Shown here piece after piece: positions 34,609-54,908 of a stretch of 64,000 bases of DNA. Under the pieces are notes generated by a model, which was not told the origin of the DNA, did no database searches, and saw only the letters and a list, made by a program, of their open reading frames with translations. The translations under genes and the position numbers were made by a program. The stretch comes from Candidatus Thorarchaeota archaeon (GTDB taxonomy: Archaea > Asgardarchaeota > Thorarchaeia > Thorarchaeales > Thorarchaeaceae). The stretch lies in NCBI GenBank assembly GCA_016839605.1, contig JAEOTX010000039.1:53541-117540 (forward strand), read 5' to 3'. The stretch's first letter is position 1; every line of letters begins with the position of its first letter.

Positions 34609-35849
34609 TCAAGTAGCTGAGTAGCACGTTCCTCAATCTTTCCGAGTCGCGAAGATAGTTCTTCAAGTCTGTCAAGCATATGACCAAGCTTGTTGCGCAG
34701 CATCCCAACAGCTGCGCCCTCATCTCCACCAAAATCACCTGTCATCATTTCTGACTTCTGCTGTTCTGCTAGAATTTGAGCTTGGTTCTCAACCAACTCA
34801 AGTCTCTCGATAATATCCTCAACTGGAAATTTCTCCATACGAATTCTAAGATCATCAACCAATTTAGTAAGAGCCTCGGCCGCTATTCGCTCTTCCTCGC
34901 TCACAATCGGTCTGACTGGTTCTGTGAGAGAGAAGGATTGCTTCACTCCCTCCATTATGCCTCCACGGGGTTTGCTCACAATTACCTCGCGCGTTCTTGC
35001 TGGAGGGTGAATTCTATCACCTCTCTCGAACCAAGCTGGCACTATGAACTTCCGAGTGATATCTTCTAGGTCTGTGTCCAAGAGTATCGCGAAAGTAGCT
35101 AATTCTCGCGAATTATCCCATATTGCTAGTTCAACCAAATCTTCTTTCCTGAAAATCGCTGTGGCTACTCCTAGATTCAAATCCTCGAACACAGGTAGGT
35201 CAATCAACCAACGACTGAATAAAAGAGCAAAAGCTGGAATCTGCCTTAGCTTGCCACAGCGAAGGGCAATTTGGTATTCATCTTCCGGCTGCTGAACAGC
35301 CTGCTTTATCCATATCGATGTGTTGAATTTTCTACCTGGAATGCTCAGACTGAGAACCTCCGCGGCCTCCCATTCAATGGCATCAATTCTCAGTTGCTCA
35401 ATGTAATCCAGATTGGGCTCCTCGAATTCGGGAGAGAGTTTCTCTCCAAGGAGATACTTCAGCACAAGACGAATGATATCCTGTGGAGTGTAGTCACGCA
35501 GCCAAATCGTTGTTGCAAGCTTAGCTCGGCCCGGAGCACGTGCATCATCTGAGAGTACAACAACTAGCTTCGATGATTCCAAGCCCGGCTCTCCAAGAAT
35601 GAAAATGCCTGTTCTCCCAGGAGCATCCATGGCACGGTCAGCCATCAAATGTACAGCTTCATGGGTGGGTTCAATGTAATTCTCCTGATTGAATTTCGAA
35701 CTTGATGACTCTTGGAGCCCCTTAACCAATAGCCCCTCCTCAACCCAGCCTGATTTCAGGCCCTTCTCTGGCAGCTGAGAAATTAGATATCCTAGGACCT
35801 CGCTGCTGCTATACATTGCCTGAAGTCTGGTTATTGCTTCTTCGTTCAC
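34605..35849 (-). CDS. Hypothetical protein with C-terminal coiled coil
   Basis: 414-aa ORF with 4-nt overlaps on both sides; alpha/beta N-terminal part and heptad-rich C-terminus. Confidence 0.75.
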   Translation of the reverse strand: MNEEAITRLQAMYSSSEVLGYLISQLPEKGLKSGWVEEGLLVKGLQESSSSKFNQENYIEPTHEAVHLMADRAMDAPGRTGIFILGEPGLESSKLVVVLSDDARAPGRAKLATTIWLRDYTPQDIIRLVLKYLLGEKLSPEFEEPNLDYIEQLRIDAIEWEAAEVLSLSIPGRKFNTSIWIKQAVQQPEDEYQIALRCGKLRQIPAFALLFSRWLIDLPVFEDLNLGVATAIFRKEDLVELAIWDNSRELATFAILLDTDLEDITRKFIVPAWFERGDRIHPPARTREVIVSKPRGGIMEGVKQSFSLTEPVRPIVSEEERIAAEALTKLVDDLRIRMEKFPVEDIIERLELVENQAQILAEQQKSEMMTGDFGGDEGAAVGMLRNKLGHMLDRLEELSSRLGKIEERATQLLE

Positions 35850-36973
35850 TTGCCAACAGCCTCGCTACGAATCCTTTCGAAAATACGCTCAATCACTAGT
35901 TTAACATCTTTGTATTGGCCTATATGAATCAGACTCCCAGACCCTGCATCGGCTGTTGCCTGCATCAAAACCAAATCTGATTCGGTCCCCAATGCCACGC
36001 ATGAAACTGAAACTCCATCAGTTGCACCAATTGTCCGTGCCACACTCACTGGATTGCGACCTGATGTAAAAGCCCCTCCAGATATGAGCAAAACAACAGT
36101 GGGAAGATGATTCTGCGATCTTAATTCGTTTGCAATTTGAAGAGACATCTCCAAGGCTTTTCCGGGATTTGATGGTTCATCTTTTCGGTCATCATTTTGT
36201 GCGGAGAGCCATTCATGGATCTGGTTAAATGATTTTGAATTAAGCTCCAGTGCCATGTCCTCAACACTCTCTATTTGCTGGGGAGACTCACCAAAAGCGA
36301 TGGCTGAAACCAAGGCGTTTGGACACGCACGAGCTGAGGATAATGTGGATTGAATTACGCTTAAGCCAGCTTCTAATCGAGTCTTTCTATGAGATTCATC
36401 ATCCACTTCAACATCATCAATCTCAGATGACGCTCCGACATCGATTGCATAGCATATATTGAAGCAACTGGGCACATCTGCAAGAGCGGTGAGATTGACC
36501 TTCAGCAGCTGGTTCCATATGATTCTCGAAGCCTGCAATCCCTTAGCGACAGGGTTTGATTTGTCAACTACCAGTCTTAGGCCAAGGCCAGCAATATCAA
36601 TCCGTTGCCCAAGTTTAACAATCAGACCGTCAAGATGTTCCTTGAGATCTTCAACTTTCTTAGACACTTCATCTACAACTTTCTTGTTATCCAATCCTTT
36701 CAATGAATCCACAAGAAGAGCAAGTTCATTGCAATCGGGAATCTCCTCTGGAACTGCAGCCAAAGAAATCTCACAGTGTTCTTCGCATGCTAATTCATCG
36801 AATATTCGAGAATCGATTATTAAGGAGCCAGAATCTACTTGTTCTGATGTACGAATATCCGTATAGACTTCTACTCCTTGATAACTTAATAGTGCCGTTC
36901 TTACAGCAGTCACAGATGGATGCACAAATGATATGCCTCTCTGGTTTCGTCCTTTGACAGCTTCAAGCTCCAA
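35846..36973 (-). CDS. Cdc48-N-like domain plus degenerate vWA domain protein
   Basis: RGISFVHP..SLIIDS N-domain; FNICYAIDVGAS, SNPGKAL, LLISGG, VALG..L...A..G.G; paralog of 28658-29938. Confidence 0.7.
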   Translation of the reverse strand: MELEAVKGRNQRGISFVHPSVTAVRTALLSYQGVEVYTDIRTSEQVDSGSLIIDSRIFDELACEEHCEISLAAVPEEIPDCNELALLVDSLKGLDNKKVVDEVSKKVEDLKEHLDGLIVKLGQRIDIAGLGLRLVVDKSNPVAKGLQASRIIWNQLLKVNLTALADVPSCFNICYAIDVGASSEIDDVEVDDESHRKTRLEAGLSVIQSTLSSARACPNALVSAIAFGESPQQIESVEDMALELNSKSFNQIHEWLSAQNDDRKDEPSNPGKALEMSLQIANELRSQNHLPTVVLLISGGAFTSGRNPVSVARTIGATDGVSVSCVALGTESDLVLMQATADAGSGSLIHIGQYKDVKLVIERIFERIRSEAVGK

Positions 36974-36987
36974 AGCCTGCCACTCAC

Positions 36988-38130
36988 CTAATATAGACGC
37001 GTATTGTATATCGCAGTTGCGAGGGATTTGGAACCGTACATGACCTCAACACGCATGCTCGCTTTGCCCTTTTCATCTGACATTGGTGTGAGCTGCGATT
37101 CAATGTGTCGTTCAGAGTTGGGTCCAATTTCATGCTTCTCATTAGTAACCTCTGATACTCCTTCAGGAGTAATCAAGGTAACAACAAGCCTGATTCCAAT
37201 AACGGCACGACTTGGATTCTTCACCCTCAAGTCAAACATGAATGGCCTTCCTGCAATTAGAGCATCAGGAACGTCTCCAAGTTCAACACTCATACCCATT
37301 TTTGATGCTGCAAGTGGACGTCCCTTTGGCCATCTAGCAATCTTACTAAGCTCAAGAAGCCGCGAGAGTGATGTCTTCACATCCCTGAGTTCCAATTCAA
37401 GCTGCACAGCTGCTTCCCCAATATCAAATGTCCCATCATTTGCCTCATAATATGCGAGGACTCTGCGATCTGATTCAATTAGATCACTCACTCCCTCGAG
37501 GATTTGAAGAATAGCCTCTGGCAATTCGTGTGCCTCCTGAAGGGAATAGTATCGCCCTCCATCAACTGAATCAGCGATGCCCTTGAATGACTCCCGAACA
37601 AGGGGGTTGCATCCGCAGATGAATATGAAGACGGTCTCTCCGTAGCGGCTCTTGAGGGCTTGCACTTCTCTACGAGGATCGTGTCCCTTTGGACACCCAT
37701 CAGGGAAATAGTCATCGCCCAAGGTATTGTACGCTCTGCCATGAGGCGGCGCATCACCTACAAGAAGCAGTGCTTTGTAGGCCTGCTCATCCCAGGAGAG
37801 CTTGGTCCGTGCATCATATAATCCATCAGCGACAGCCTCAGGTGTGTCACCACCCTGAGAAGGATTAAGATTTGATATCTCTCTGTGTACGTTCTTGAGA
37901 CGATCCGAGAAATCGAATATGCGTGTCACATAGGAATGGTCCTGAGGCGGATGATCACGATATGACACTATTGCGAAACGTATACTGAGACTCTTTGTTC
38001 GTGTAGTGATTTTGTCTACGATATCAAATAGACTATCTTTCACTGCACGAATGTCATCTTTCATTGAACCAGTCGTATCTACAACAAAGGCAACGTCAAG
38101 TTTGGCTCTATGCAGCCCAATCCTCTCCAT
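36988..38130 (-). CDS. vWA domain protein with wHTH-like segment and C-terminal Ig-like domain
   Basis: DVAFVVDTTGSM, YRDH, GGDTPEA, GDAPPHG; FDIGEAAVQLELELRDVKTSLSRL (HTH-like); beta-sandwich tail. Confidence 0.85.
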   Translation of the reverse strand: MERIGLHRAKLDVAFVVDTTGSMKDDIRAVKDSLFDIVDKITTRTKSLSIRFAIVSYRDHPPQDHSYVTRIFDFSDRLKNVHREISNLNPSQGGDTPEAVADGLYDARTKLSWDEQAYKALLLVGDAPPHGRAYNTLGDDYFPDGCPKGHDPRREVQALKSRYGETVFIFICGCNPLVRESFKGIADSVDGGRYYSLQEAHELPEAILQILEGVSDLIESDRRVLAYYEANDGTFDIGEAAVQLELELRDVKTSLSRLLELSKIARWPKGRPLAASKMGMSVELGDVPDALIAGRPFMFDLRVKNPSRAVIGIRLVVTLITPEGVSEVTNEKHEIGPNSERHIESQLTPMSDEKGKASMRVEVMYGSKSLATAIYNTRLY

Positions 38131-38204: not shown

Positions 38205-38603
38205 ATGAATGACAGTGTGTTTCGCATGAGTGAGAGCAACCTACTATTGGATTTGGAATTCGAAGGAGAACTCGTTCTGAATGTGGTTCTAGAGAGGATC
38301 AAGGCGCCCCTCATTGTCGAGGACATCAAATCAATGCTCCCTCTTGAAGGAAGAGCCGCGTTAATGCGAGATGAGATGCAAATAACTCTCGGCATCAGAA
38401 GAGGAAATATTAAACCAACCAAGGAAGTCAAGCGCGGAGACATAGCATACATGCCTTTAGGAGGAAACCTTTGCATCTACGTCACTGACAAAACCACGTT
38501 TAGCCCAGTTACAATCATTGGACATGTAGAATCCAAAGGTGATGAGCTGGATGGATTGAAGAACATCAGACGAGGAAGCAAAGCGGTACTCAAGACTAAT
38601 TGA
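38205..38603 (+). CDS. Cyclophilin-like fold protein
   Basis: AP.IV..I...LP and VKRGDIAYMPLGGNLCIY..SPVTIIG. Confidence 0.8.
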   Translation: MNDSVFRMSESNLLLDLEFEGELVLNVVLERIKAPLIVEDIKSMLPLEGRAALMRDEMQITLGIRRGNIKPTKEVKRGDIAYMPLGGNLCIYVTDKTTFSPVTIIGHVESKGDELDGLKNIRRGSKAVLKTN

Positions 38604-38609
38604 CTTGCT

Positions 38610-39164
38610 CTAAAGACCCTGCTGCAAGTTGCGAAGAAGAAGCTCATTTTCATCAGGCTCTATCACGGTGGGATCTACGACTATACCTGGCTCATTAGCC
38701 TCAATGACTACATCAATACCAGATTGACTGACTTTCTTTATTCCTGAGTGCGATAGTGCTCTTACGCGTAGTTGTGTGGTGTCAAACTCGGTTCTATCTG
38801 CCGCTTCAACCGCCTTTACATCTCTGCGCAGTTTCGTCTTTGTTATTCTGAGCTGTTCCTTTAATTGAACCAGTTGGAGCTGAAGATCGATTCGCTCCCG
38901 ATCTGCCTCTTCGAATTTTGCTACCACATCATCATACTGGGTCTTTGAAACCAATTTCTGACTCTGATCAATCCAAGTTATGGTGGTGCCATCAAACCGA
39001 CGTTTTGTCGACACTTGTCCTAAAGCTTTGAGTACAGCAATCACATCATAGATTCGACGCTTAGGAGTGGCGAGCTGTTCAGCTAAAACATCGCTTCTAA
39101 CGCCTTCCTCCCCACATTCCTGAATTATTCTAACCGCAGTCTTCGCCAAATCTACAAGTTTCAA
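38610..39164 (-). CDS. E2F/DP-like winged-helix transcription factor
   Basis: KRRIYDVIAVLKALG..ITW matches the E2F/DP RRxYD signature; followed by a coiled coil and a beta-rich tail. Confidence 0.75.
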   Translation of the reverse strand: MKLVDLAKTAVRIIQECGEEGVRSDVLAEQLATPKRRIYDVIAVLKALGQVSTKRRFDGTTITWIDQSQKLVSKTQYDDVVAKFEEADRERIDLQLQLVQLKEQLRITKTKLRRDVKAVEAADRTEFDTTQLRVRALSHSGIKKVSQSGIDVVIEANEPGIVVDPTVIEPDENELLLRNLQQGL

Positions 39165-39421
39165 AGTCGCACCCCACTGACAAGCCGGCGAGAGTCTCCA
39201 CAGAGCACTCTTCCTCTATAGGATTCATCTACTCTATTTAAAGGTAGGTGTTATCTCTGCGATTTTCCGAACTAATTAACTGATAACCTTAATTATAATT
39301 ATCGGACGGGTTCGTCGAAAAATCGACGGTTTCGTATTACTTACACCTACCGCTAATTACTTAACTCGCGTCTTTGGCAAAAGAACGCAGGTTTCATACA
39401 AGTTTCTGCGGAGAGATTGCT

Positions 39422-40756
39422 ATGACCAGAAAAAAAGTTATCATCATGGGTGCAGCAGGCCGGGACTTCCACAACTTCAATGTGTTCTTTCGAAACAACG
39501 AAGACTATGAGGTTGTTGCGTTCACTGCTGAGCAAATACCGGGTATTGGGGATAGATTGTATCCTCCAGAGCTATCTGGAGATCTCTATCCTGACGGCAT
39601 CAAAATCTACCCAGAAGAGAAGCTACCAGAACTAGTCGAGAAATTTGAAGCTGAACAGTGCATTCTGGCATATTCTGACCTGTCCTATGATACGGTGGGT
39701 CACAAGATTGCTTGGGTGAATAGTATTGGTGCAGACATTAGACTCATGGGCACTAACACTACGATGTTGAAAAGCAAGAAGCCACTTGTAGCAATCTGTG
39801 CCGTAAGAACTGGATGCGGAAAGAGCCAGACCTCTCGACGAGTGAATCAGATTCTTGTTGATATGGGACTTAAGCCTGTTAACATACGCCATCCGATGCC
39901 ATACGACCCCGACCTTACGACCCAGATAGCACAGCGCTACGAGGTTCTGGGAGACTTGGACAAGTATAATTGCACGATTGAAGAACGTGAAGAGTACGAA
40001 CCCATGATCAACATGGGCGTGATCCTCTATGCTGGGGTTGACTACGGTGAAATTCTGAGCCAAGCTGAGGAGGAAGCAGATGTAATAACTTGGGATGGAG
40101 GGAACAATGACTTTTCCTTCTATCGCCCAGACCTGTTCATCGTAATCGCAGATCCACACAGACCAGGGCATGAAGTGTCCTACTATCCAGGAGAAACCAA
40201 CCTCATAATGGCGGATGTTGTCATCATCAATAAGGTTGAAACTGCGGACTATGATTTCGTGGAAGAAGTTAGGGATAACATCATGCGTGTCAATCCAGGT
40301 GCGGTCATCATAGAAGCTGCCTCACCTGTCACTGTAGAAGACATGAGTGTGATTCGTGGAAAGAGAGTGCTTATTGTGGAGGATGGACCCACAGTCACAC
40401 ATGGAGATATGCCATATGGAGCGGGATACATCGCAGCAAGAAAGGCAGGGGCTGAAATTGTAGACCCAAGGCCATTCGCGGTAGGCTCTATTAAGGACAC
40501 TTTTGAGAAGTACTATCATCTTGAGGATGTCCTACCAGCAATGGGATACGGTAAGACGCAGATGAAAGAGCTTGAAGATACAATCAACAAAGCAGACGTG
40601 GATGCTGTAGTAATTGGCACTCCGATTGATCTGGGGCGACTCATCAAGATCAATAAACCAAGTGTTAGAATCAGATATGACCTACAGGAGATTGGTAGGC
40701 CTAATCTCGAAGACATTCTTGCTGAGTTTGTTGAGAAAAAGGGCTTGAAGAAATAG
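39422..40756 (+). CDS. Cyclic 2,3-diphosphoglycerate synthase-like predicted GTPase (COG2403-type)
   Basis: GAAGRDFHNFN, RTGCGKSQT, RHPMPY, WDGGNND, EDGPT.THG motifs. ORF track extends to 39374. Confidence 0.85.
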   Translation: MTRKKVIIMGAAGRDFHNFNVFFRNNEDYEVVAFTAEQIPGIGDRLYPPELSGDLYPDGIKIYPEEKLPELVEKFEAEQCILAYSDLSYDTVGHKIAWVNSIGADIRLMGTNTTMLKSKKPLVAICAVRTGCGKSQTSRRVNQILVDMGLKPVNIRHPMPYDPDLTTQIAQRYEVLGDLDKYNCTIEEREEYEPMINMGVILYAGVDYGEILSQAEEEADVITWDGGNNDFSFYRPDLFIVIADPHRPGHEVSYYPGETNLIMADVVIINKVETADYDFVEEVRDNIMRVNPGAVIIEAASPVTVEDMSVIRGKRVLIVEDGPTVTHGDMPYGAGYIAARKAGAEIVDPRPFAVGSIKDTFEKYYHLEDVLPAMGYGKTQMKELEDTINKADVDAVVIGTPIDLGRLIKINKPSVRIRYDLQEIGRPNLEDILAEFVEKKGLKK

Positions 40757-46170: not shown

Positions 46171-46890
46171 CTATTGCGTCTGCCCCCATTCATTCCCTGT
46201 TGCAATCAATATGAGACCAATTATGATTAGTCCCGGAGCCAAGATGCCTGGAATAGTGTAGGATCCCAAGAAGACCATATCAGCCAAAACATGACGAGCT
46301 GCATGAATCACTCTGCCTGCAAACAAGACAAAGAAGCCTAAGCCTAGCATTAAGTTAGACCGTCTTAGGATACCACCTGATTGCCATGCCAAATACCAGA
46401 ATAGAAGGGGAATGAATAATGCATATAGAGCACCTGCACCACCTGATAGAATCTGACGATCTAGTTCAGCAAGTGGGACTAGTGCCAGTACAATGCCGAT
46501 TAAAACGGCAGGGATAGCAAAGAGAATTTCAGCCCACCGCTTCCCAAATATCATGAAAGCAGCTGTAGCAGAGAGAATGGCAAGTGCCATCCATTGGAAG
46601 AAAGCTCCTGCACTAAGCCAAACAGCTGGGTCGGATAGCAAAACTGAGAATTGCGTTTCTAATCCGCCATAGAGAGAGGATATGTCCGCATAGAAGTCGC
46701 CAACGAAATAGAAACATCTTCCAATAGCAAGCAAGAGGAAGAAGAGAGCCATAGCAAGCTGGAAAGGATTCCTTGTCTTCTTGTATCTAAAGAAGAGGAA
46801 GAATATGAAGATGAAGAAATAATACCCAACCACAAGGAACCATAGCCCTATGTGTGCTTCTCTAATTGCCATATCGATGGTCTGTAACAT
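46171..46890 (-). CDS. Seven-TM membrane protein
   Basis: About 7 hydrophobic helices; RYKKTRN after TM1. Confidence 0.75.
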   Translation of the reverse strand: MLQTIDMAIREAHIGLWFLVVGYYFFIFIFFLFFRYKKTRNPFQLAMALFFLLLAIGRCFYFVGDFYADISSLYGGLETQFSVLLSDPAVWLSAGAFFQWMALAILSATAAFMIFGKRWAEILFAIPAVLIGIVLALVPLAELDRQILSGGAGALYALFIPLLFWYLAWQSGGILRRSNLMLGLGFFVLFAGRVIHAARHVLADMVFLGSYTIPGILAPGLIIIGLILIATGNEWGQTQ

Positions 46891-47077
46891 CTTGCTAGCT
46901 CCTTTGGCTTCTGGTTTACACTAGTACGGTTCTGTTCGCTTCCTGACAAATAAGTGTATTCTGCTCCATAAATGAGCTAATGAGGACAATACGTCTGCAA
47001 TATGCCAAAAACACACTCTACACATACACAAAGACAACCTCTATATTTGGCGCGTGTGAACTCTTGTTGGTGGTCCT

Positions 47078-47491
47078 TTGAGTTCCGGGCGAACGTGGAA
47101 GCTGAAAACTGCAGACGGCACGCTCACAGAGTTCAAAGACATCCGTCGAAAAGTGGGTAACCAGATCATCCGTGCGTATCTGCTTGAGAATGCTTTGTCT
47201 GCGAACCGTCTTGAGCGAATTAAGGCAACTCTCAGGGGACCCAAGAACGAGTTCAAGGATTTCGATGACTTTTTTGTATTGAGTGCATCAGTTAACGGCA
47301 AACTTAGGATTCTCGTTGAAGCCAATGTCTATGATAATCTGAGAATTGTTGGAACTGATAGTGAGAAAATAACAAGCATGAATCCAAAACAAATCTTATC
47401 ATTGTTCACTAAGATCCTTGATGAGCTCGAAAATCATGCAACAACATTGATTCTAAGCGAAAACTCAAAGGTGAGTGCAAAACAAGGATGA
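47078..47491 (+). CDS. Hypothetical protein
   Basis: 137-aa ORF with a 4-nt overlap with the next gene. Confidence 0.7.
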   Translation: MSSGRTWKLKTADGTLTEFKDIRRKVGNQIIRAYLLENALSANRLERIKATLRGPKNEFKDFDDFFVLSASVNGKLRILVEANVYDNLRIVGTDSEKITSMNPKQILSLFTKILDELENHATTLILSENSKVSAKQG

Positions 47492-53249: not shown

Positions 53250-54908
53250 ATGCAGATGTTTGGTCATCTTATCAAGGGTGAGATTGTACAATCAGACAAC
53301 GGAAGGACTGCAATCTTTCCGGATATGAACCGAGTTATAGCAGACCCACGGATTCTCTATGCAATGGCCATGAAGGAACAAGGGTCTCTAGGACGCTTTG
53401 CAGCTCGATACTTCAGTGGAGTACTTCCAGAAAAGACACCAGAGATAAGACTCCTAAAAGACTACATCCGAACGCATGGGCATCCTTCTGCAACAAAGGA
53501 TGAGATAGAAGAGATACAGTTTGCAAAATATACTATTGGAGGGGAGCGTGAGACTGCTAGAGCATGTGATGAGGCGCATAGGATTCGAAGATTGATGCAT
53601 AGAGAAGTCGACAGCCAAGGAGAGGGGATTTCTCTACAGGAAAGAGCAGAGAGCCTCATCCATATAGGTGAAGCGCTCTGGAAGAACTATGATTCATTCA
53701 AAAGGATCGGAATCGCAGAGGGAACTCCTGTCACACTATTTGATTGGCAGACAAAAGGCGTGTTCAACACCCTGAATAAGGAGCACATCGATTACGCAAC
53801 AAGCAGGATTTCTCCTGAAGAGATCCCATGTGCAACTAAGGGAGAAAGGACTATTCTGAGTAGGTTCCCCTATGGTGCTGTAGGAGTCTTTCCACCCTAC
53901 AATGCCGCAATCGGGCTCGGAGGAATGTCCATCATCTCAAGTTTCTGGGCAGGAAACGCCACTGTCACAAGAACACCATCAAAGATGCCTCTCACGAATA
54001 TGCAGCTTGCCTATGTTCTTGCAGATGCGATGAGAGACTTAGACTTCCCTGTAAGCGCATTCCAGTCAGTGATTGGACCAGCCCGTGAGATTGCGAACTA
54101 TATGATCAATAAGTCGCCACTCAATGCCATGGTCTATTATGGAGACTCAGATGTGGGACTAGGACTCATGGCTAAAGCAGTAAAACGTGGACTGCATTTT
54201 GTACCCGAGCTTGCAGGTAGTGGTGCAAGTCTAGTCTGGAAAGACGTCGACATCGATAAGGTCTCAAGCTATGTGACTAATGCAAGATTCTTCGGATCTG
54301 GACAAACGTGTTTTGCAGCAAAACGCTTGTTCCTGCATGAATCCATCTTTGACGATTTCATTGCGGCACTGGTAGAGAAGAGTGAACAGCTGAGAGTAGG
54401 ATTGCCAGAGGATTCAAAGACTGATTTACCGATTGTTGGAACTCGTGCACTCTATCAAGTCATCGACATGGTTGACGAAGCATTAAAGAGGGGGGCTAAA
54501 TTAGAAACAGGAGGGTATCGGCTAAACGCTCAAGGGGAGCCAGATGAAGCAGGACTATTCTATAAACCGACCATTCTGAGCAACGTCCCGCTTGATTGCA
54601 AGATGTGGTATCGAGAAACATTCGGCCCAGTCTTCCCAGTAATGAAGGTCAGCTCATTCCAGCAGGCAATCACTCAGGCTAACAACTCACAATATGGACT
54701 CCGCACATCTGTGTATAGCGATGATCCCAGAATCTGGGCTCGCTTCTTCGATGAGATAGATGCGCCAGGTATCGCAGTCAACACCAGCCATATCCACTTT
54801 GACAATTACTATCCTCATCTGGGTGGACTAAAGGCGAGTGGAATCAATGGTGGGAAGTATTTCTATGAGATTCTAACCTATATGAAATATCGACACTTTC
54901 CTGCATAG
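53250..54908 (+). CDS. Aldehyde dehydrogenase family protein
   Basis: PYGAVGVFPPYN, PELAG (general-base Glu), GQTC (catalytic Cys), ETFGPV, ANNSQYGL. Confidence 0.9.
   Translation: MQMFGHLIKGEIVQSDNGRTAIFPDMNRVIADPRILYAMAMKEQGSLGRFAARYFSGVLPEKTPEIRLLKDYIRTHGHPSATKDEIEEIQFAKYTIGGERETARACDEAHRIRRLMHREVDSQGEGISLQERAESLIHIGEALWKNYDSFKRIGIAEGTPVTLFDWQTKGVFNTLNKEHIDYATSRISPEEIPCATKGERTILSRFPYGAVGVFPPYNAAIGLGGMSIISSFWAGNATVTRTPSKMPLTNMQLAYVLADAMRDLDFPVSAFQSVIGPAREIANYMINKSPLNAMVYYGDSDVGLGLMAKAVKRGLHFVPELAGSGASLVWKDVDIDKVSSYVTNARFFGSGQTCFAAKRLFLHESIFDDFIAALVEKSEQLRVGLPEDSKTDLPIVGTRALYQVIDMVDEALKRGAKLETGGYRLNAQGEPDEAGLFYKPTILSNVPLDCKMWYRETFGPVFPVMKVSSFQQAITQANNSQYGLRTSVYSDDPRIWARFFDEIDAPGIAVNTSHIHFDNYYPHLGGLKASGINGGKYFYEILTYMKYRHFPA

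Follow-up and report, generated by a model that had tools for sequence, protein, structure and literature searches.

Where the G1/S transcription programme of eukaryotes, which is driven by E2F and DP proteins, comes from is an open question, and one gene of a Candidatus Thorarchaeota archaeon bears on it: does this archaeon encode an E2F/DP-like factor of which more than the DNA-binding domain is shared with eukaryotes, and which genes might such a factor control? We analysed a stretch of 64,000 nucleotides (hereafter the window), which corresponds to positions 53,541 to 117,540 of contig JAEOTX010000039.1 (C179:53541-117540) in assembly GCA_016839605.1, an assembly of 3.08 Mb in 259 contigs that is 80% complete. 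The G+C content of the window is 45-48% throughout, and no Rfam matches were found within it. The gene in question lies on the minus strand at 38610..39164 (stop codon at 38610-38612) and encodes an E2F/DP-like protein of 184 residues with a TTG start. Judging from sequence comparisons, it is fairly probable that this protein is a single E2F/DP-family factor that would act as a homodimer on palindromic E2F-type sites of DNA replication and deoxynucleoside triphosphate (dNTP) supply genes.

The open reading frame (ORF) at 38610..39164, taken from the ORF list of the window, is a real, selected gene and not a chance ORF. Its translation contains every string quoted in an earlier reading made from the letters of the DNA alone (the sequence-only reading), that is, the KRRIYD helix, the ITW wing, the LQLQLVQLKEQL heptads and the beta-rich tail. 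At least 120 homologues exist, each of about 183 residues. In an alignment of 41 close homologues (A1), both halves of the protein turned out to be conserved, with P34, K35, R36, R37, Y39, D40 and W64 invariant in the N-terminal half and R135, S138, G160, D164 and P165 invariant in the C-terminal half.

The gene itself is a known Asgard E2F/DP homologue and is not new. The table of eukaryotic signature proteins in Eme et al. 2023 (Nature 618:992, PMC10307638) contains an identical 184-aa sequence, labeled as E2F/DP PF02319 from a Thorarchaeota metagenome-assembled genome with a TTG start, and its coordinates (92150-92704) are window positions 38610-39164 plus the window offset; the protein has therefore already been published, as the sequence-only reading had suspected for Asgard E2F-like domains in general. 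According to the same study (Suppl. 4.1.5), the base-contact residues of Asgard E2F/DP are conserved, with similar DNA motifs being expected, while the homology is confined to the domain that binds DNA, the dimerisation domain being lacking. A 2024 review (PMC7617429) also mentions that E2F homologues are encoded by some Asgard genomes. Compared with the account of Eme et al. 2023 (arCOG02749), which concerns the same protein with the same conserved base-contact residues and is limited to the DNA-binding domain, the window protein shows a coiled coil in register with the E2F zipper and a conserved beta module of four strands. Besides these two elements, what is added here is the single copy of the gene, its cyclophilin-like neighbour and candidate target sites.

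The N-terminal 66 residues (38967..39164, minus strand) form a winged helix of the E2F type that contains the RRxYD motif. The Pfam model E2F_TDP (PF02319) scores 35.1 bits on the window protein against a curated cut-off of 25.7, and it matches all of the close homologues (41 of 41) and all of the distant Asgard homologues (10 of 10). In the AlphaFold2 (AF2) model the winged helix consists of helices at residues 3-20, 24-31 and 35-48 and strands at 51-56 and 59-64, with a predicted local distance difference test score (pLDDT) of 82-86. The recognition-helix motif KRRIYD (residues 35-40; 39045..39062, minus strand), with K35, R36, R37, Y39 and D40 invariant in A1, represents the RRxYD base-contact motif of E2F/DP. 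It aligns with RRRIYD of E2F8 and KRRIYD of E2F4, and the wing tryptophan W64 is likewise conserved. When the family profile was compared with PDB sequences, the best matches were E2F8 (E = 8.7e-7), E2F4 (0.011) and DP2 (0.84), and the alignment spans the RRxYD helix.

We also ran an exhaustive hmmsearch against 1.84 billion cluster representatives with E up to 1e-3, which returned 70 matches, about half of them Asgard-type proteins. All of the non-Asgard matches scanned with Pfam (20 of 20) turned out to be eukaryotic E2Fs with E2F_TDP scores of 57-190 bits, and 11 of them also contain E2F_CC-MB, the coiled coil-marked box domain, above its cut-off. When the search was limited to longer proteins, it found E2F7/E2F8 only. 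The sequence-only reading had proposed an E2F/DP-type DNA-binding domain with RRxYD and had suggested Pfam searches with the E2F_TDP, E2F_CC-MB and DP models; the E2F_TDP score and the eukaryotic E2Fs found as relatives confirm the domain.

The DNA-binding domain is followed by a coiled coil or leucine zipper at residues 74-123 (38796..38945, minus strand), with leucines at a/d positions 94, 98, 101, 105 and 112. With the first alignment, AF2 modelled this segment as one long helix from 74 to 123 (pLDDT >90 at 80-110), and the last 60 residues were poorly modelled. A full-length profile-profile comparison (hhalign) of 73 Asgard sequences with 40 eukaryotic E2Fs aligned 105 columns (probability 98.7%, E = 1.7e-16). 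In the window protein this alignment extends over residues 3-111 and takes in the DNA-binding domain and the linker together with about 30 zipper residues of E2F; past residue 111 the posterior confidence is zero. Several eukaryotic E2Fs align collinearly through the coiled coil of the window protein. Considered alone, the coiled-coil match is weak (hhalign probability 10.8%), as is expected for coiled coils. Because the full-length alignment runs from the DNA-binding domain into the E2F zipper, the zipper helix is, by this comparison, in register with its counterpart in typical eukaryotic E2Fs, and the leucine-zipper-like coil noticed in the letters after the DNA-binding domain has thus held up.

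To see how widely the protein occurs, we counted E2F-like matches per genome. The own genome, as far as it is assembled, contains a single PF02319 match and no DP-like paralogue, and most of its relatives have one E2F-like match per genome. In the Asgard phylum a match was found in 120 of 301 genomes, including 69 of 76 genomes of the own family, where the protein is full-length. Full-length forms also occur in several other families, and no match was obtained in some large ones (0 of 28, 0 of 68 and 0 of 21). Besides, there are short forms of 115-135 aa, in which the winged helix and the beta module are kept and the coiled coil is missing.

Since there is a single gene and no DP-like partner, the protein would pair with itself, and a homodimer, as the sequence-only reading had it, is plausible. 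In the mechanism that we propose, the pairing would take place through the zipper and probably through the beta module, and the homodimer would bring its two winged helices to a palindrome of the TTSGCGCSAA type, the symmetric version of the E2F site known from eukaryotes. The candidate targets in this genome would be the genes of MCM and of the small subunit of DNA polymerase D (PolD), both of which serve DNA replication; in relatives, the divergent promoter of thymidylate synthase (thyA) and class III ribonucleotide reductase (RNR; nrdD), which serve dNTP supply, may be a further target.

To find candidate sites, we surveyed 25 thyA loci from 16 genera of the own family. An exact TTTSSCGC is found about 200-300 nt or less upstream of thyA in 14 of the 25 loci, and 21 of them have an SGCGCS core with T/A flanks (e.g. 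TTTCGCGCGAAA and TTTGGCGCGAAA) at a distance of 70-180 nt upstream, in a surrounding sequence that is not conserved. In these relatives nrdD is the divergent neighbour of thyA wherever the flank extends that far. The strict site also occurs within 300 nt upstream of the PolD small subunit gene (10 of 25 loci) and of the MCM gene (10 of 25), and the corresponding reversed-sequence controls gave 1 of 25 and 0 of 25. As background, 2.6% of 2493 genes have a strict site upstream, compared with 40-56% for thyA, MCM and the PolD small subunit in relatives. In this genome the PolD small subunit gene is preceded by ATGGCGCCAAA at -127 and the MCM gene by TTGGCGCGAAA at -188. Autoregulation through an E2F-type site was considered and rejected, as none of the 21 own-promoter regions of the E2F-like gene (0 of 21) carries such a site. 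As for dNTP supply, thyA, thyX and class I/II RNR genes were not found in this 80%-complete genome.

Some further E2F-type sites were recorded as such. The single perfect TTTGGCGCCAAA site of this genome is flanked by uninformative genes. On another contig of the own genome, a single divergent promoter contains both TTTCGCGC and GCGCGAAA (C161:14213 and 14327; L074 and L075) and is located between the genes of an 896-aa protein without Pfam match and of a 653-aa WD40/TPR protein. The window contains three TTTSGCGC sites (2.1 expected), none of them near the E2F-like gene. An E2F-type site, TTTGGCGCG, is located at 47046-47054, in the divergent intergenic region between the ORFs 46171-46890 (minus strand) and 47078-47491 (plus strand), both without Pfam match.

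The C-terminal part of the protein contains a conserved four-stranded beta module at residues 125-168 (38661..38792, minus strand) and a terminal helix at residues 172-183 (38616..38651, minus strand). It was modelled with AF2 as a separate domain (model m6f0e630c5685) from a 56-sequence alignment with residues 90-184 as its first row. The mean pLDDT is 81.7, and the strands at 131-136, 142-147, 152-156 and 161-166 reach 90-94; the fold is a four-stranded meander from 131 to 166 with the terminal helix. The beta module is conserved across Asgard families and is retained even by the short forms.

The sequence-only reading had regarded this tail as a marked box, and the searches do not sustain that assignment. 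No match to PF16421 (E2F_CC-MB) or PF08781 (DP) was found at the locus at E up to 10, nor in 51 homologues. For the comparison with the marked box we used a non-redundant E2F CC-MB alignment of 43 sequences, with the DP side represented by the Pfam DP model, and hhalign of the Asgard C-terminal module alone against the E2F CC-MB profile gave a probability of 0.1%; the whole region behind the winged helix, compared in the same way, likewise yielded no marked-box signal. The strand-by-strand pairing with the marked box that had been read from the letters gave global and local scores no better than those of 60 column shuffles, reversal or circular shifts (for example, 2.4 observed with a shuffled mean of 3.3). 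By sequence, no homology of the beta module to the E2F marked box is thus detectable. The module may have diverged from a marked box or may be a dimerisation module of separate origin.

Among known systems, typical E2F1-6 (1CF7, 2AZE, 5TUU) have in common with the window protein the winged helix, RRxYD, the wing tryptophan and a zipper that follows directly at the same spacing, and the candidate target is likewise a GC-core site with T/A flanks. They also differ. Typical E2Fs possess a marked box (E2F_CC-MB), to which the window protein shows no detectable homology; they form a heterodimer with DP, whereas the window protein is single-copy without a DP partner and presumed to be a homodimer; and they have a transactivation and pocket-protein-binding tail, whereas the chain of the window protein stops at residue 184, immediately behind the beta module. 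In line with the last point, no RB_A (PF01858) match above cut-off was found in the own genome, that is, no Rb-type protein, and Eme et al. 2023 (PMC10307638) agree on the missing transactivation/pocket-protein-binding region and the missing Rb-type partner. The atypical E2F7/E2F8 (4YO2) are the best-scoring solved relatives of the DNA-binding domain (E = 8.7e-7) and are DP-independent, as the window protein would be; however, they contain two tandem DNA-binding domains per chain and no coiled coil, whereas the window protein has one DNA-binding domain and a zipper. TrmB regulators, with a winged helix-turn-helix (wHTH), a coiled coil and a sugar-binding domain, share the layout of an N-terminal winged helix and then a dimerising helix, but in the window protein Pfam reports no TrmB match, and a TrmB C-terminal domain is missing.

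To describe the neighbourhood, we compared the genes around the E2F-like gene with 39 loci by tblastn of the window neighbours. A cyclophilin-like gene (PF04126/PF18050 by Pfam; 38205..38603, plus strand) lies tail-to-tail with the E2F-like gene at a gap of 6 nt, and its protein has weak PDB matches to TM1367-type proteins. It convergently adjoins the E2F-like gene in all 20 family loci and in 14 of 19 distant Asgard loci (loci L004-L040), and is without a counterpart at the short-form loci L041 and L042. A convergent pair that is so widely conserved is unusual. On the other side, a divergent upstream gene (39374-40756, plus strand) encodes a 460-aa protein with a weak cobW match and a weak PDB match to cyclic 2,3-diphosphoglycerate synthetase (9sxb_A, E = 9.6e-4). 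This gene is kept within the family only, where it is 80-90% identical, compared with 56-65% for the E2F-like gene.

Two adjacent genes at 35846-38130 (minus strand) include a vWA-domain gene (PF25106/PF00092 by Pfam); the second has no significant Pfam match, although a Cdc48-N-like start had been seen in it from the letters. The idea that the E2F-like protein might regulate this Cdc48N-vWA locus was rejected, as there is no E2F-type site nearby and, outside the family, the vWA gene adjoins an E2F-like homologue in a single genome, which belongs to the same order.

The E2F-like gene and the 460-aa gene share a divergent promoter region (39165..39373), whose conservation we judged from the sequence and 20 orthologous loci. 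It contains a TATA-like box (CTTTAAATAG, 39234-39243), a conserved CGCCGG leader block (39185-39190), a Shine-Dalgarno (SD)-like sequence (GTGGGGTGC, 39169-39177) and an inverted pair of CGATTTTYCG motifs (39260-39271 and 39313-39328), each about 100 nt upstream of one of the two start codons and conserved in several genera. The leader at 39185-39210, downstream of the TATA-like box and ahead of the SD-like GTGGGGTGC, combines the CGCCGG block with a small hairpin (TGCTC-N4-GAGCA in relatives) and might act as an operator or as an RNA element. As markers of a regulon these motifs were discarded, for CGATTTTYCG is not enriched genome-wide (11 occurrences, 10 in the control) and neither is the CGCCGG block. 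In one group of related loci (L009-L023), but not in this window, there is a near-perfect 20-bp palindrome, GTCTCCAAAATATTGGAGAC, located on the side of the 460-aa gene and about 200-230 nt upstream of where the E2F-like gene starts.

Several observations speak against a homodimeric factor at replication and dNTP genes. The dimer is deduced from the single copy of the gene. In this genome E2F-site enrichment is weak or absent genome-wide: TTTSSCGC occurs 246 times, compared with 199 in the reversed-genome control, which is no overall enrichment, and among the 42 genes with a core site upstream the annotated subset belongs mostly to unrelated metabolism. The thyA-nrdD region cannot be read here, because nrdD (C163:4-1617, L044) is cut by the contig start, thyA is unassembled and the two genes are divergent neighbours in relatives, so that their promoter falls in an assembly gap. 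The binomial P values for site conservation overstate its significance, since related genomes do not count as independent, and the proposed link from protein to site, which comes from the conservation of sites, is circumstantial. Finally, Foldseek with the whole model found generic winged helices only (Z-alpha, MarR/SlyA and ArsR folds) and no E2F structures. These folds, together with weak secondary TrmB matches in 33 of 41 homologues, are what an ordinary TrmB/MarR-type wHTH regulator of archaea would also give, its E2F match being a clan-level resemblance only. We consider this highly improbable: E2F_TDP outscores TrmB in every homologue, no TrmB match is reported in the window protein even at E up to 1, and no TrmB or MarR regulator is present among the checked matches of the exhaustive search. 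The weak TrmB matches are no argument against E2F membership, because genuine eukaryotic E2Fs give equally weak ones. Membership in the TrmB family itself, which is defined by PF01978 and the C-terminal sugar-binding domain, is effectively refuted, as the window protein has neither.

The other two alternatives concern the beta module and the genes under control. The protein might have the complete eukaryotic E2F/DP core, with the beta module as a very diverged marked box, and might so represent a homodimeric E2F/DP ancestor from before the duplication. The module is placed like a marked box, after the DNA-binding domain and zipper, is of similar size and is an all-beta meander; the top Foldseek chain of the domain model among 350,542 is 2aze_B, the E2F1 chain of the E2F1-DP1 CC-MB structure, and the E2F4 chain 5tuu_B is rank 15. 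Over the domain-level fold searches the E2F1/E2F4 chains take ranks one to three, yet all of the scores are insignificant (E = 1.4 and TM score 0.27 in the search with the domain model). In the ESM Atlas, the C-terminal parts of the window protein and of a homologue of about 25% identity both rank the same two E2F_CC-MB clusters at the top, with scores of 0.75-0.78, a range that provides leads only, and the Atlas model may have used the whole protein as context. In view of the silent Pfam models, the profile and null comparisons given above, the alignment confidence of zero after residue 111 and the limitation of homology to the DNA-binding domain by Eme et al. 2023 (PMC10307638), the complete core appears rather unlikely. 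It is also conceivable, and in our judgement unlikely, that the protein is a local regulator of its conserved neighbours (the cyclophilin-like, 460-aa or vWA genes), that the beta module senses a partner or ligand, and that the sites at replication genes belong to another factor. The conserved cyclophilin-like neighbour, the motifs of the shared promoter (the inverted CGATTTTYCG pair, the CGCCGG leader block and the small hairpin) and a beta module that is kept without the coiled coil would fit such a role. However, the cyclophilin-like gene is convergent and therefore neither co-transcribed with the E2F-like gene nor under a common promoter, and the short forms at L041 and L042 are without it; conservation of the vWA and 460-aa genes as neighbours stops at the family or order; and the promoter motifs, besides being not enriched elsewhere, are not GC-core sites of the kind bound by an RRxYD helix. 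A single E2F/DP-family factor, probably homodimeric and directed to replication and dNTP genes, is what we prefer.

In conclusion, the published picture of Asgard E2F/DP, which is limited to the DNA-binding domain, is here set against a protein with a conserved zipper aligned with that of E2F and with a further conserved module. E2F-type palindromes lie before the genes of MCM, DNA polymerase D and thymidylate synthase/RNR across Thorarchaeal genera, and these are functional classes that E2F controls in eukaryotes. In its strongest form, which seems quite unlikely to us at present, the coiled coil and beta module would be the ancestral E2F/DP CC-MB, the homodimer would drive MCM, PolD and thyA/nrdD through palindromic E2F-type sites, and both the architecture of the G1/S transcription switch and its core regulon would be older than eukaryotes. 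Whether cell-cycle transcription predates eukaryotes thereby becomes a question that can be tested at the bench with one small soluble protein.
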